A stretch of DNA of 64,000 nucleotides, from the NCBI RefSeq assembly GCF_003334785.1, contig NZ_QOWV01000013.1. One strand, given 5' to 3'. Every line of letters starts with the position of its first letter. Positions within the stretch are counted from its first letter, which is position 1. This stretch comes from Escherichia coli. Lineage in GTDB: Bacteria; Pseudomonadota; Gammaproteobacteria; Enterobacterales; Enterobacteriaceae. Shown here piece by piece: positions 16,163-51,200 of this stretch. A program made the translations under genes and the position numbers. The notes beneath the pieces are model-generated. The model did not search any database. It was not told the origin of the DNA and was given only the letters and a program-made list of their open reading frames with translations.

Positions 16163-18539
<2,377 letters not shown>

Positions 18540-22038: not shown

Positions 22039-22638
22039 ATGAAGCCAGGGTGTACGCTGTTTTTTCTCTTATGTTCTGCATTAACCGTTACAACAGCGGC
22101 GCATGCACAAACACCAGATACGGCAACGACCGCGCCTTATCTGCTGGCTGGAGCCCCTACTTTCGATCTCTCCATCAGCCAGTTTCGAGAAGACTTTAAC
22201 AGCCAGAATCCCAGCCTGCCACTGAACGAATTTCGTGCCATCGACAGCAGTCCCGACAAAGCCAATCTCACTCGTGCTGCAAGTAAAATTAATGAGAACT
22301 TGTATGCTTCTACAGCGCTGGAGCGCGGTACCTTAAAAATCAAAAGCATTCAAATGACCTGGCTACCCATCCAGGGGCCAGAGCAAAAAGCCGCGAAAGC
22401 GAAAGCTCAGGAATACATGGCAGCGGTGATCCGCACACTCACCCCATTAATGACCAAAACACAAAGCCAGAAAAAACTGCAGTCGCTACTAACGGCGGGG
22501 AAAAACAAACGTTATTACACCGAGACAGAAGGTGCACTGCGTTATGTTGTCGCGGACAACGGCGAAAAGGGGCTGACCTTCGCTGTTGAACCGATTAAGC
22601 TGGCGCTATCTGAATCGCTTGAAGGTTTGAATAAATGA
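22039..22638 (+). CDS. yiiQ: YiiQ, DUF1454-family periplasmic protein
   Basis: ORF track 199 aa with signal peptide MKPGCTLFFLLCSALTVTTAAHA. Confidence 0.85.
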   Translation: MKPGCTLFFLLCSALTVTTAAHAQTPDTATTAPYLLAGAPTFDLSISQFREDFNSQNPSLPLNEFRAIDSSPDKANLTRAASKINENLYASTALERGTLKIKSIQMTWLPIQGPEQKAAKAKAQEYMAAVIRTLTPLMTKTQSQKKLQSLLTAGKNKRYYTETEGALRYVVADNGEKGLTFAVEPIKLALSESLEGLNK

Positions 22639-25584: not shown

Positions 25585-25690
25585 GCCGGATGCGGCGCGA
25601 ACGCCTTATCCGGCCTACAAAAGTTTGCAAATTCAATAAATTGCAGAATTCATGTAGGCCTGATAAGCGAAGCGCATCAGGCATTTTTGC
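25585..25690. repeat. BIME (two inverted REP units)
   Basis: gccggatgcggcgcgaacgccttatccggcctac ... gtaggcctgataagcgaagcgcatcaggca; antisense track ORF 25502..25699 with ...[12 protein letters not shown]... is a REP artefact. Confidence 0.8.
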
Positions 25691-27784: not shown

Positions 27785-27865
27785 AAATACTCCCGCTATC
27801 AACTGACGCTAGTATAACGGAAGCAAATCATCTGCAATGCATTAAGCAGCAGGCAAATTGAGGAT

Positions 27866-27932
27866 AAAAAAAACCCCCACAGCATGTGGGGGAAGACAGG
27901 GATGGTGTCTATGGCAAGGAAAACAGGGTTTA
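27866..27932 (-). ncRNA. cpxQ: candidate CpxQ sRNA (cpxP 3'UTR-derived) including the cpxP intrinsic terminator
   Basis: Immediately downstream of cpxP stop; hairpin cccccacatgctgtggggg followed by T8 on the minus strand; assignment as a processed sRNA rests on published biology, not on sequence alone. Confidence 0.45.
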
Positions 27933-28433
27933 CTACTGGGAACGTGAGTTGCTACTACTCAATAGCTTCAACGATGAACTTTTTTGCCATTGCGTCACGT
28001 CACGCAACTGCTCCATTCGTTGTTGATGTTTCTCGTTTAAAACCGCTTGCTGCTCCGGCGTTAACAGGCGATACATTTGGTTGCGGACTTTTGCCATCTC
28101 AACCTGACGAGCAATTTGCTCATTCGCCATTTTTTCTGCCTGTGCGCGCACAGCGTTTTCATCAAAATTTTCTGCGGTGACAAGGCGATGCATTGTCTCC
28201 AGTTCGCTAACATTAACAGGAGGCTGTTCGTGCCGGGCCTGTTGCATAAGATCTCGCATCTGCTGACGCTGATGTTCGGTTAAACTTATGCCGTCGAACA
28301 TATGGCTCTGCGTACTGCGCTGCGTAAGTTCTTCACCCGGATGCCAGTTATCGCCTGAACCGACTTCAGCAGCGTGGCTTAATGAACTGACTGCCAGCGT
28401 TGAGGCCATGACGGCAGCGGTAACTATGCGCAT
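27933..28433 (-). CDS. cpxP: periplasmic stress adaptor CpxP
   Basis: Track ORF 167 aa; CpxP (166 aa) from second Met [21 protein letters not shown]; two LTxxQ motifs. Confidence 0.95.
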
Positions 28434-28512
28434 CATTTGCTCCCAAAATCTTTCTGTCGCGATTCAACGATAGAGAGTTTACGATTCAGGCTGCAAACAT
28501 GCGTCAGGGGGT

Positions 28513-28527
28513 GTAAAACAACGTAAA
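28513..28527. promoter_or_regulatory. CpxR box in the divergent cpxP / cpxRA control region
   Basis: GTAAA-acaac-GTAAA direct repeat (consensus GTAAA N5 GTAAA) about 55 bp upstream of cpxR. Confidence 0.7.
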
Positions 28528-30664: not shown

Positions 30665-30750
30665 AGGCAGGATAAGGCGTTTACGCCGCATCCGGCATTT
30701 GAGCAGGATGCCTGATGCGACGCTGATAGCGTCTTATCAGGCCTACACTC
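30665..30750. repeat. BIME (two inverted REP units)
   Basis: ggataaggcgtttacgccgcatccggca ... gcctgatgcgacgctgatagcgtcttatcaggcctac. Confidence 0.8.
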
Positions 30751-39534: not shown

Positions 39535-39765
39535 TGCCGGATGCGGCGCGAGCGCCTTATCCGGCCTACGGGTCGGCAACAGTTGTAGGCCTGATAAGAC
39601 GCGACAGCGTCGCATCAGGCATTGATTGCCGGATGCGGCACAAGTGCCTTATCCGGCCTACAGGTCGGCAATAGTTGTAGGCCTGATAAGACGCGACAGC
39701 GTCGCATCAGGCATTGATTGCCGGATGCGGCGCGAGCGCCTTATCCGGCCTACGGGTCGTGCATC
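39535..39765. repeat. tandem BIME cluster (about five REP palindromes in alternating orientation; about 95-bp unit repeated about 2.5 times)
   Basis: Repeated gccggatgcggcgcgagcgccttatccggcctac / gtaggcctgataagacgcgacagcgtcgcatcaggca units between rhaA and rhaD. Confidence 0.85.
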
Positions 39766-48053: not shown

Positions 48054-48246
48054 TTTCTCTTAACCAGATAAGAACACACACACCAACATTATGGTATTCT
48101 GTTACAAACCCTTCCTGGATGGAGGGAAATTGAGCCAATTCTGGACCTTTGCGGCCCCTTCCGCAAAGAAAAATAACTCCCACTCCCTGCACACGCAGCA
48201 AGCGAATGTAAATGGGACGTGACAATGTCGAAACAAGGAGCAATCC

Positions 48247-51200
48247 ATGCAGGTCAGCAGAAGGCAGTTCTTTAAGATCTGCGCTGGCGGTATGGCAGGC
48301 ACCACGGCAGCGGCACTGGGTTTTGCACCCAGCGTAGCACTCGCGGAAACCCGGCAGTATAAACTGCTGCGCACCCGCGAAACCCGTAATACCTGCACCT
48401 ATTGTTCCGTAGGCTGTGGGCTGTTGATGTACAGCCTCGGTGACGGAGCAAAAAACGCCAAAGCATCTATCTTCCATATCGAAGGCGATCCGGATCACCC
48501 GGTCAACCGCGGTGCACTTTGTCCGAAAGGCGCTGGCCTGGTGGATTTCATCCACTCCGAAAGCCGTCTGAAGTTTCCGGAATACCGTGCGCCAGGTTCT
48601 GATAAATGGCAGCAAATCAGTTGGGAAGAGGCGTTTGATCGCATCGCCAAACTGATGAAAGAAGACCGCGATGCTAACTACATTGCGCAAAACGCCGAAG
48701 GCGTGACTGTTAACCGCTGGCTCTCCACCGGGATGCTGTGTGCTTCCGCGTCGAGTAACGAAACCGGCTATTTAACGCAAAAATTCTCCCGCGCGCTGGG
48801 TATGCTCGCGGTCGACAACCAGGCGCGTGTCTGACACGGACCAACGGTAGCAAGTCTTGCTCCAACATTTGGTCGCGGTGCGATGACCAACCACTGGGTC
48901 GACATCAAGAACGCCAACCTCGTCGTGGTGATGGGCGGTAACGCCGCTGAAGCTCACCCGGTCGGGTTCCGCTGGGCGATGGAAGCCAAAATTCACAACG
49001 GCGCGAAGCTGATTGTGATCGATCCTCGCTTTACGCGTACGGCGGCGGTAGCTGACTACTATGCCCCTATTCGTTCCGGTACTGACATTGCTTTCCTGTC
49101 AGGCGTATTGCTGTACCTGCTGAACAATGAAAAATTCAACCGCGAATACACCGAAGCCTATACCAACGCCAGCCTGATCGTGCGTGAGGATTACGGCTTT
49201 GAAGATGGCCTGTTCACCGGCTACGACGCGGAAAAACGCAAGTACGATAAATCCTCCTGGACTTATGAACTGGACGAAAACGGCTTCGCCAAACGCGATA
49301 CCACGCTGCAACATCCGCGCTGCGTGTGGAACTTGCTGAAACAGCACGTTTCCCGCTACACGCCAGATGTGGTTGAAAACATCTGTGGTACGCCAAAAGA
49401 CGCGTTCCTGAAAGTCTGCGAATACATCGCAGAAACCAGTGCTCACGATAAAACTGCCTCGTTCCTGTATGCCCTCGGCTGGACGCAACACTCCGTTGGT
49501 GCGCAAAACATTCGTACGATGGCGATGATCCAGCTGCTGCTCGGCAATATGGGGATGGCAGGCGGCGGCGTTAACGCCCTGCGCGGTCACTCCAATATTC
49601 AGGGGCTGACGGACCTGGGGCTGCTGTCGCAGAGCCTGCCAGGTTACATGACGCTGCCAAGCGAGAAGCAGACCGATCTGCAAACCTACCTTACCGCCAA
49701 CACGCCAAAACCGCTGCTGGAAGGCCAGGTAAACTACTGGGGCAACTACCCGAAATTCTTCGTCTCTATGATGAAGGCCTTCTTTGGTGATAAAGCGACG
49801 GCGGAAAATAGCTGGGGCTTTGACTGGTTGCCGAAGTGGGATAAAGGCTACGACGTCCTGCAATACTTCGAGATGATGAAAGAGGGCAAGGTCAATGGCT
49901 ATATCTGCCAGGGCTTTAACCCTGTTGCCTCATTCCCGAACAAAAACAAAGTGATCGGTTGTCTGTCGAAACTGAAGTTCCTCGTCACCATCGACCCACT
50001 GAACACTGAAACCTCTAACTTCTGGCAGAACCACGGTGAGCTGAACGAAGTTGACTCGTCGAAGATCCAGACCGAAGTGTTCCGTCTGCCATCGACCTGC
50101 TTCGCGGAAGAGAACGGTTCTATCGTTAACTCAGGTCGCTGGTTACAGTGGCACTGGAAAGGTGCGGACGCCCCGGGGATTGCGCTGACTGACGGCGAGA
50201 TCCTCTCCGGTATCTTCCTGCGCTTGCGCAAGATGTATGCCGAACAGGGTGGCGCGAACCCGGACCAGGTGCTGAACATGACATGGAACTACGCCATTCC
50301 GCATGAGCCATCTTCAGAAGAAGTGGCGATGGAGAGCAACGGTAAGGCGCTGGCCGATATTACCGATCCGGCAACCGGTGCGGTTATCGTCAAGAAAGGC
50401 CAACAACTTAGTTCGTTCGCCCAATTGCGCGATGACGGTACAACCTCCTGTGGCTGCTGGATTTTCGCCGGTAGCTGGACGCCGGAAGGCAACCAGATGG
50501 CACGCCGTGATAACGCCGATCCGTCTGGCCTCGGTAACACGCTGGGCTGGGCATGGGCATGGCCGCTTAACCGCCGCATTCTGTATAACCGCGCCTCCGC
50601 AGATCCGCAGGGTAACCCGTGGGATCCGAAGCGTCAGTTGCTGAAATGGGACGGCACTAAGTGGACCGGCTGGGATATTCCGGACTACAGCGCAGCGCCT
50701 CCGGGTAGCGGCGTCGGGCCGTTTATCATGCAGCAGGAAGGCATGGGGCGTCTGTTTGCCCTCGATAAGATGGCGGAAGGTCCGTTCCCGGAACACTACG
50801 AGCCGTTTGAAACGCCGCTGGGAACTAACCCGCTGCATCCAAACGTTATCTCGAACCCGGCTGCACGTATCTTTAAAGACGACGCCGAAGCATTGGGTAA
50901 AGCCGATAAGTTCCCGTATGTCGGAACCACCTATCGTCTGACCGAGCACTTCCACTACTGGACCAAACACGCGCTGTTGAACGCGATTTTGCAGCCAGAG
51001 CAGTTTGTGGAAATCGGGGAGTCGCTGGCGAATAAACTTGGCATTGCCCAGGGCGATACCGTGAAAGTCTCCTCCAACCGTGGCTATATCAAAGCCAAAG
51101 CGGTGGTGACCAAACGTATTCGCACGCTGAAAGCGAACGGCAAAGATATCGATACCATCGGTATTCCGATTCACTGGGGCTATGAAGGCGTAGCTAAAAA

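Follow-up and report, generated by a model that had tools for sequence, protein, structure and literature searches.

The 3' untranslated region (3'UTR) of cpxP ends in a strong hairpin and a run of T nucleotides, and the question raised by this locus is whether the region is simply the end of an mRNA or whether it is the gene for the Hfq-dependent small regulatory RNA (sRNA) CpxQ. The DNA that we analyzed was a 64-kb stretch from Escherichia coli (64,000 nucleotides, referred to here as the window), and the locus corresponded to the cpxRA-cpxP-fieF-pfkA region of E. coli, read in the reverse direction. A sequence-only reading of this DNA had proposed a candidate CpxQ sRNA directly downstream of cpxP. 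CpxQ was reportedly described in 2016 in E. coli K-12 (b4716) and in Salmonella Typhimurium, in work by Chao and Vogel and by Grabowicz et al. The identity, location, terminator structure, cross-species conservation, stem covariation, and CpxR box presented below came from our analysis; the statements about CpxQ processing, Hfq dependence, stability, and targets were taken from the literature on an identical sequence.

Identification of cpxQ downstream of cpxP

The following features were placed at the end of cpxP.

27933..28436, minus strand: cpxP coding sequence, parental gene of CpxQ (ORF list and E. coli records: cell-envelope stress modulator CpxP)
27866..27932, minus strand: full cpxP 3'UTR, 67 nt (minus-strand reading)
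27866..27923, minus strand: mature CpxQ sRNA, 58 nt (b4716), 58/58 identical to the annotated K-12 gene

The cpxP gene had 167 codons when it was read from the first ATG in the ORF list, versus the 166 annotated by RefSeq. Its stop codon, TAG at positions 27935-27933 on the minus strand, was followed immediately by a second in-frame stop, TAA at 27932-27930. This TAA was also present right after the cpxP stop codon in E. albertii and Citrobacter werkmanii, and Salmonella had CAA at that place. The 67-nt 3'UTR consisted of UAAACCCUG and then the 58 nt UUUUCCUUGCCAUAGACACCAUCCCUGUCUUCCCCCACAUGCUGUGGGGGUUUUUUUU. Two plus-strand ORFs in this region (27884-28180 and 27886-28026) were mechanical ORFs that ran antisense to cpxP without any support, and they were rejected.

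All 161 nt between the end of cpxP and the start of fieF were identical to E. coli K-12 MG1655 (161/161). In the curated MG1655 record (NC_000913.3), the feature "ncRNA cpxQ, b4716, small regulatory RNA CpxQ" is located at 4106330-4106387, which corresponded to window positions 27866..27923 on the minus strand. Thus, the proposed CpxQ candidate was borne out by both the sequence and an annotated gene at matching coordinates. According to the MG1655 record, cpxQ begins 10 nt past the cpxP stop codon, and in the window CpxQ spanned nearly the whole 3'UTR on the same strand as cpxP (27923..27866, with cpxP ending at 27933). The sequence-only reading had put the 3'UTR at about 60 nt; this value fits the annotated 58-nt RNA but falls short of the whole 3'UTR, which is 67 nt.

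We also compared the window sequence with the sequence at the same locus in S. enterica, which was represented by S. enterica Infantis and houtenae contigs. The two matched at 57 of the 58 nucleotides, and the sole difference was in the loop at nt 42, which was C in the window copy instead of A. With 58/58 matches to K-12 b4716 and 57/58 to S. enterica, the conservation relative to characterized CpxQ on which the earlier proposal depended was present. Relative to K-12 CpxQ, the window copy had the same locus, strand, length, terminator, and parental gene with a CpxR box, and no difference was found; Salmonella CpxQ likewise shared the terminator architecture and the parental gene. We saw no sequence evidence against the CpxQ identity at 27866-27923. 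The results indicated that the segment at 27866-27923 on the minus strand is almost certainly cpxQ, the segment for the 3'UTR-derived, Hfq-dependent sRNA CpxQ of E. coli K-12, and that cpxP is the parental mRNA. CpxQ is already described and annotated here; it is ordinary textbook biology and not a new feature.

Farther downstream in the spacer, we noted the motif CCGTTATACT at 27811-27820 on the minus strand, which contains a -10-like TATACT and ends 27 nt before the fieF ATG (27784). The motif was kept in E. albertii, Citrobacter, and Enterobacter cloacae, and close variants of it were present in Enterobacter sp. Ag1 (CCGCTATACT) and Pluralibacter (CCGCTATAAT). Because the spacer around the motif was otherwise poorly conserved, CCGTTATACT probably represents the promoter of fieF. 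At 27811-27820, no call was made by our simple scan for promoters.

Structure of the CpxQ RNA

Folding and a terminator scan divided the 58-nt RNA into the following parts.

27911..27923, minus strand: single-stranded 5' region, CpxQ nt 1-13, UUUUCCUUGCCAU (unpaired in the MFE and centroid folds)
27894..27910, minus strand: predicted small stem-loop, CpxQ nt 14-30, AGACA/CCAUCCC/UGUCU (MFE and centroid folds)
27874..27892, minus strand: Rho-independent terminator hairpin, CpxQ nt 32-50, 8 bp with loop UGC (terminator scan)
27866..27873, minus strand: U8 tail, 3' end of the transcript and presumed binding module for the proximal face of Hfq (minus-strand reading and terminator scan)

The terminator hairpin had the sequence CCCCCACA-TGC-TGTGGGGG (27892-27874, minus strand), with six G-C pairs among its eight pairs, and the terminator scan reported CCCCCACATGCTGTGGGGG as the 3-nt loop and TTTTTTTTAT as the tail. 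It was stronger than the two other terminator-like sites in the 1.4 kb scanned, where shuffled sequences led us to expect 1.3 such sites. The GC-rich hairpin and T8 that the sequence-only reading had placed after the cpxP stop codon were recovered on the minus strand exactly as it had located and described them. Long U tails of sRNAs have an established role in Hfq binding.

The 67-nt RNA folded with a free energy of -17.4 kcal/mol (z = -2.43), and 2 of 200 shuffled sequences were equally stable; the corresponding z score for the 58-nt RNA was -2.80. In the unpaired 5' region, the sequence UUUUCCUUGCCA contained C5, C6, and U7, which are the published seed nucleotides. Specifically, C5, C6, and U7 serve as the seed on cfa (10.1101/271551), and U7 does so on the nhaB coding sequence (PMC10250213). 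A second conserved CpxQ seed has also been reported (10.1101/271551). The small stem-loop at nt 14-30 had five pairs and an invariant sequence in the compared species, and because its pairs never vary, covariation spoke neither for nor against it.

Conservation of CpxQ among species and within E. coli

Homologues were retrieved by scanning 298 Gb of genome contigs with a pattern of 14 specified bases, CTGTTTNCCTTGCCA, for which thousands of chance matches were expected. Among the matches listed, 8 of about 120 loci were true homologues linked to cpxP. These were from E. albertii, Citrobacter werkmanii, Enterobacter cloacae, Enterobacter sp. Bisph1, Enterobacter sp. Ag1, Pseudescherichia vulneris, Pluralibacter gergoviae, and Klebsiella sp. 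BIGb0407, and two Salmonella contigs were added to the set. Pattern matches in E. albertii (L042) and Serratia oryzae (L099) were rejected as chance matches. The comparison reached across the Enterobacteriaceae, and the set held no Yersinia, Serratia, Erwinia, or Pantoea sequences.

When the nine species with a complete cpxP were compared, CpxQ had a mean pairwise identity of 94.7% over its 58 nt, and 48 of the 58 columns were invariant. In the same nine species, the mean pairwise identity of the final 150 nt of cpxP was 69.4% and that of the 80 nt downstream was 33.5%, and the identity of the CpxP protein to that of E. coli fell to 64-85% in the homologue loci. A cpxP 3'UTR that is more conserved than the coding region has been reported for enterobacteria (PMC9438474). 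Nucleotides 1-35 of CpxQ were invariant everywhere. The conservation of nt 1-12 was ascertainment-biased, because the retrieval pattern covered these positions, whereas nt 13-35 were not fixed by the pattern.

Variation in CpxQ was confined to the terminator hairpin, and pairing was preserved. The A37-U45 pair was replaced by U-A in P. vulneris and P. gergoviae and by C-G in Klebsiella sp. BIGb0407 and Enterobacter sp. Ag1, and the A39-U43 pair was replaced by G-C in a phage-derived copy. In an ungapped alignment of the terminator stem, 90.4% of the cells were paired, versus 38-58% when the partners were slid, and the stem covariation score of 0.137 was reached by none of 500 shuffles. Every variant folded into the same two-hairpin shape, terminator hairpin included.

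Within E. coli, 5422 of 5426 complete genomes had a full-length CpxQ; of these 5422, 899 were identical to the window CpxQ, and about 4514 had one mismatch. In the junction sequences examined (L002 and L004 attR) and in Salmonella, the one-mismatch form was the A42 allele. We noted that C42, the K-12 loop base at window position 27882, is a minority allele in E. coli, and that A42 is found in most E. coli and in Salmonella, E. albertii, Enterobacter, and the Wphi attP.

A Wphi-type phage attachment site in the 3' part of cpxQ

The same segment was found to contain the empty attachment site of a group of P2-like phages.

27863..27909, both strands: empty 47-bp attB core for P2-like phages of the Wphi type, made up of CpxQ nt 15-58 (44 nt) and ATC (attL/attR/attB alignment)
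584-700 and 48110-48160 in record L004, and 1498-1547 in record L126: attachment core in other records

When attL and attR were aligned with the empty site, the duplicated core was GACACCAUCCCUGUCUUCCCCCACAUGAUGUGGGGGUUUUUUUUAUC (window 27909..27863). Of the 5426 complete E. coli genomes, 835 had a cpxP-fieF spacer that was interrupted 3 nt past the U8 tract, and in 792 of them there was a junction that ran from cpxP through CpxQ and a phage arm to an integrase. The inserts that we inspected were a P2-like prophage in P15-385 and a mosaic prophage of about 47 kb with a P2-type int/cox module in SCU-171. CpxQ nt 15-58 were also present at 97.7% identity in the phages Wphi, L-413C, fiAA91-ss, R18C, and FSLSP004 and in several Yersinia pestis phages. 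In the genomes of Wphi, L-413C, fiAA91-ss, and R18C, the copy was located between ogr and int, and in the case of Wphi (22550-22593), it had TGTGGAC arm repeats on both sides.

Since attP carries the 3' part of CpxQ, integration restores a complete CpxQ at attL, the 3' part of which comes from the phage, and it leaves a 5'-truncated copy (hairpin and U8) upstream of fieF. The CpxQ rebuilt at attL in SCU-171 (L004 584-660) had a compensatory change of A39-U43 to G-C, a UGA loop, and a C that interrupted the U tract, UCUUUUUUUU. Such changes in the stem, loop, and U tract might have an effect on termination or Hfq binding. We also noted that one E. coli assembly includes a separate record of 32.3 kb, NZ_JBQJRQ010000002.1, in which positions 16241-16286 matched only the attP-like stretch (positions 34-79) of the junction sequence; this suggests that the record is a Wphi-type phage genome that is not integrated (episomal or assembled separately).

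The arrangement resembled that of P2 at cyaR, Fels-2/SopE-phi at ssrA, and 186 at tRNA-Ile, where attP likewise copies the 3' part of an RNA gene. As at those sites, integration at cpxQ regenerates a complete gene at attL, and it is CpxQ nt 15-58 that are duplicated. Unlike those sites, the cpxQ site is described in the literature as an intergenic "cpxP-fieF" site of Wphi (PMC3032704; PMC3448106): one source lists "cpxP-fieF: Wphi1 (P2)" as an integration site (PMC3032704), and the other gives the MG1655 coordinate 4104392 (PMC3448106). The comparison presented here places this long-known "cpxP-fieF" integration site in the 3' part of cpxQ. If the MG1655 genome versions differ by 1977 bp, as we assume, coordinate 4104392 becomes 4106369, which is inside cpxQ. 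In the searchable literature, we found no paper that links the Wphi cpxP-fieF site to CpxQ, and we do not claim novelty for the link.

The presence of an attachment site suggested another explanation for the conservation described above, namely, that the 3' two-thirds of the region are conserved, in whole or in part, as a Wphi-type attachment site that is homogenized by the phage-borne copy through integration and excision. The attP cores of Wphi, L-413C, and other phages provide such a copy, and the 792 lysogenic E. coli genomes provide the traffic. Moreover, the common A42 allele of E. coli and Salmonella is the phage allele, and a phage-type stem variant was present at attL in SCU-171. However, nt 1-14 lie outside the attachment core and were equally invariant (with nt 1-12 fixed by the search pattern), and Klebsiella sp. 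BIGb0407 and Enterobacter sp. Ag1, whose sequences are not good Wphi attB sites because of a different hairpin, nevertheless kept nt 13-35 unchanged. The function of the CpxQ RNA has also been experimentally established. We therefore judged this explanation to be improbable. Phage use of the site is at most a contributing force on the hairpin region and offers no alternative identity for it, and phage traffic may be one of the reasons why the hairpin is nearly identical in E. coli, Salmonella, and Enterobacter. The attB core overlaps CpxQ but is no part of its regulatory function.

Promoter, processing, and function of CpxQ

Two further features bear on how CpxQ is produced.

28513..28527, plus strand: CpxR-P box consensus GTAAA-N5-GTAAA (pattern search, 64-kb window)
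27923..27924, minus strand: putative processing site, G27924 / U27923 (CCCUG↓UUUUCC), with the mature 5' end U1 at 27923 (MG1655 annotation and published mutant numbering)

The CpxR-type box, GTAAAACAACGTAAA, was a perfect match to the consensus and the sole match in the 64-kb window, where 0.10 matches were expected. It was located in the divergent promoter region between cpxR and cpxP, at a distance of about 77 nt upstream from the ATG of cpxP. The consensus GTAAA-N5-GTAAA is the one that CpxR recognizes, and the box would place the cpxP-CpxQ transcript under CpxR control. The cpxP promoter is the most strongly Cpx-induced promoter (PMC4817254).

The numbering of the published CpxQ M2 mutant (C5G, C6G, U7A; 10.1101/271551) fits a 5' end that reads U1 U2 U3 U4 C5 C6 U7 and therefore provides independent support for a 5' end at 27923. 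When the processing site was compared to the RNase E consensus RN↓WUU, in which the U at +2 is important (10.1101/271551), the U at +2 fit and the U at -2 did not. A simple promoter scan found no promoter-like (sigma-70) site in the 3' part of cpxP, and this result fits a processed rather than a primary RNA.

CpxQ biogenesis by RNase E and Hfq and the CpxQ targets have been described in E. coli K-12 (PMC4817254; 10.1101/271551; PMC10250213; reviewed in PMC9438474). In the published model, CpxQ uses conserved seed regions to pair with its targets, and it represses skp, nhaB, cfa, and other mRNAs. RNase E releases CpxQ near the cpxP stop codon, and Hfq improves the precision of cleavage and protects the product (PMC9438474). 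The RNA naturally carries a 5' monophosphate, and CpxQ is lost when the cleavage site is mutated (PMC9438474; 10.1101/271551; PMC10250213). A 58-nt CpxQ species was observed in E. coli by northern blotting (10.1101/271551), and endogenous E. coli CpxQ has a half-life of >16 min and represses nhaB (PMC10250213). In the case of cfa, single mutants lose regulation, a compensatory pair restores it incompletely, and CpxQ leaves a footprint on the cfa mRNA (10.1101/271551). Hence, a stable short RNA from the cpxP 3' end, as the sequence-only reading had anticipated, is already published for an identical E. coli sequence. That reading had also cautioned that processing is not visible from DNA alone; the caution was correct, and the support for processing comes from those published experiments.

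Considered together, the sequence features and the published work point to the following pathway. Envelope stress would activate CpxA/CpxR, and CpxR-P would drive the cpxP promoter, with the CpxR box upstream of it. Transcription of cpxP would end at the 8-bp hairpin and U8, and RNase E, aided by Hfq, would cleave 10 nt past the stop codon to yield the stable 58-nt RNA with a 5' monophosphate. The unpaired, invariant 5' part of CpxQ would then pair with the skp, nhaB, cfa, agp, ydjN, and fimA mRNAs, and this pairing would lead to a translation block or RNase E decay.

CpxQ shares this mode of production with SdhX, SroC, NarS, and MalH, which are also released from the 3' end of an mRNA through RNase E processing, use the mRNA terminator as the Hfq-binding module, and have their seed in a conserved region just past the stop codon. 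The parental genes and targets of these four sRNAs differ from those of CpxQ, which, in contrast to them, comes from a monocistronic mRNA and takes up nearly the whole 3'UTR (PMC9438474).

The hairpin and U8 are canonical, and DNA alone cannot show function; one could therefore argue that the region is a mere cpxP terminator or 3'UTR and that the short RNA is an inert by-product of decay. Termination needs only a hairpin and a U tract, yet the 35 nt upstream were invariant in nine species, and the adjoining coding sequence (69%) and downstream spacer (33%) diverged. In addition, published genetics on the identical sequence showed that phenotypes and target regulation depend on the seed nucleotides. 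We regard a mere terminator as very improbable.

Many 3'UTR sRNAs, such as MicL and DapZ, have internal promoters, and our simple scan could miss promoters that are not of the sigma-70 type. An origin of CpxQ as an independent "type I" 3'UTR sRNA gene, transcribed from a promoter of its own within the end of cpxP, nevertheless has next to no probability, given the lack of a promoter-like site in the 3' part of cpxP, and the published RNase E-dependent release, 5' monophosphate, and loss of CpxQ on mutation of the cleavage site. In addition, the first nucleotides of such an RNA would be UUUU, which is poorly suited to initiation; transcription avoids a U start (PMC10250213).

Hrs1 and the annotation of CpxQ

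When the whole window was scanned with Rfam 15 at gathering thresholds, no family was reported at the CpxQ locus, and Rfam has no CpxQ family. A permissive scan returned RF02628, the Hrs1 family of Erwinia amylovora, at 27866-27938 on the plus strand, antisense to cpxP, with a score of 41.4 bits versus a gathering threshold of 56.4 (E = 6.8e-07). Permissive matches to NsiR1 and anti-hemB at the same locus were rejected as generic terminator look-alikes.

In Erwinia, hrs1 is located between cpxP and fieF in the same orientation as both genes, and Hrs1 has a Rho-independent terminator, was validated by northern blotting, and is Hfq-dependent, with its level falling to 14-21% of that of the wild type in a delta-hfq strain (PMC4070566). 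Zeng and Sundin (2014) called it Erwinia-specific (PMC4070566). Given its position between cpxP and fieF, on their strand, and its terminator, Hrs1 is evidently the orthologue of CpxQ in Erwinia, and its description preceded that of CpxQ by two years. The two RNAs share the core CUGUUU-N-CCUUGCCA and a C-rich hairpin, which were seen in the reverse complement of the Rfam consensus; in contrast to CpxQ, Hrs1 was reported as a 74-nt RNA with two northern bands, and its sequence has diverged. The consensus of the Hrs1 model starts with A7 and then a hairpin, which is a terminator in reverse complement. Thus, the Rfam model appears to have been built from the wrong (reverse-complemented) strand, and the subthreshold antisense score looks like a database problem and not a biological one.

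With regard to genome annotation, we noted that PGAP-annotated complete E. coli genomes (the records under matches H109-H122) have no feature over cpxQ and that only the curated NC_000913.3 annotates it. Several other elements in the window scored above the Rfam gathering thresholds. These were a SECIS_3 selenocysteine insertion element (48829-48887, plus strand), a ClpQY promoter element (11911-11968, plus strand), an L31 ribosomal-protein leader (7247-7299, minus strand), and two ES036 elements (25620-25661, plus strand, and 6226-6267, minus strand). Rfam also reported three naRNA4 (REP-type) elements (30666-30743, plus strand; 39588-39658 and 39680-39750, minus strand), one of which is just after cpxA.

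Significance

CpxQ served here as a positive control: a reader that had only the sequence recognized a real processed sRNA by its architecture. Three points may be of use to curators, namely, the RefSeq/PGAP gap at cpxQ, the missing CpxQ family in Rfam together with the apparently wrong strand of the Hrs1 model, and the correspondence of the Wphi site to the 3' part of cpxQ. One further idea about the phage is speculative, and we think it unlikely to be correct: Wphi-type lysogeny would swap the CpxQ terminator and Hfq module for the phage copy and in this way tune the non-coding arm of the Cpx response through termination, Hfq binding, or abundance. If this were true, a prophage at cpxQ, as found in about 15% of complete E. 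coli genomes, would tune the Cpx response. The RNA itself is a textbook 3'UTR-derived regulator, and in the Cpx envelope stress response it forms the non-coding arm.
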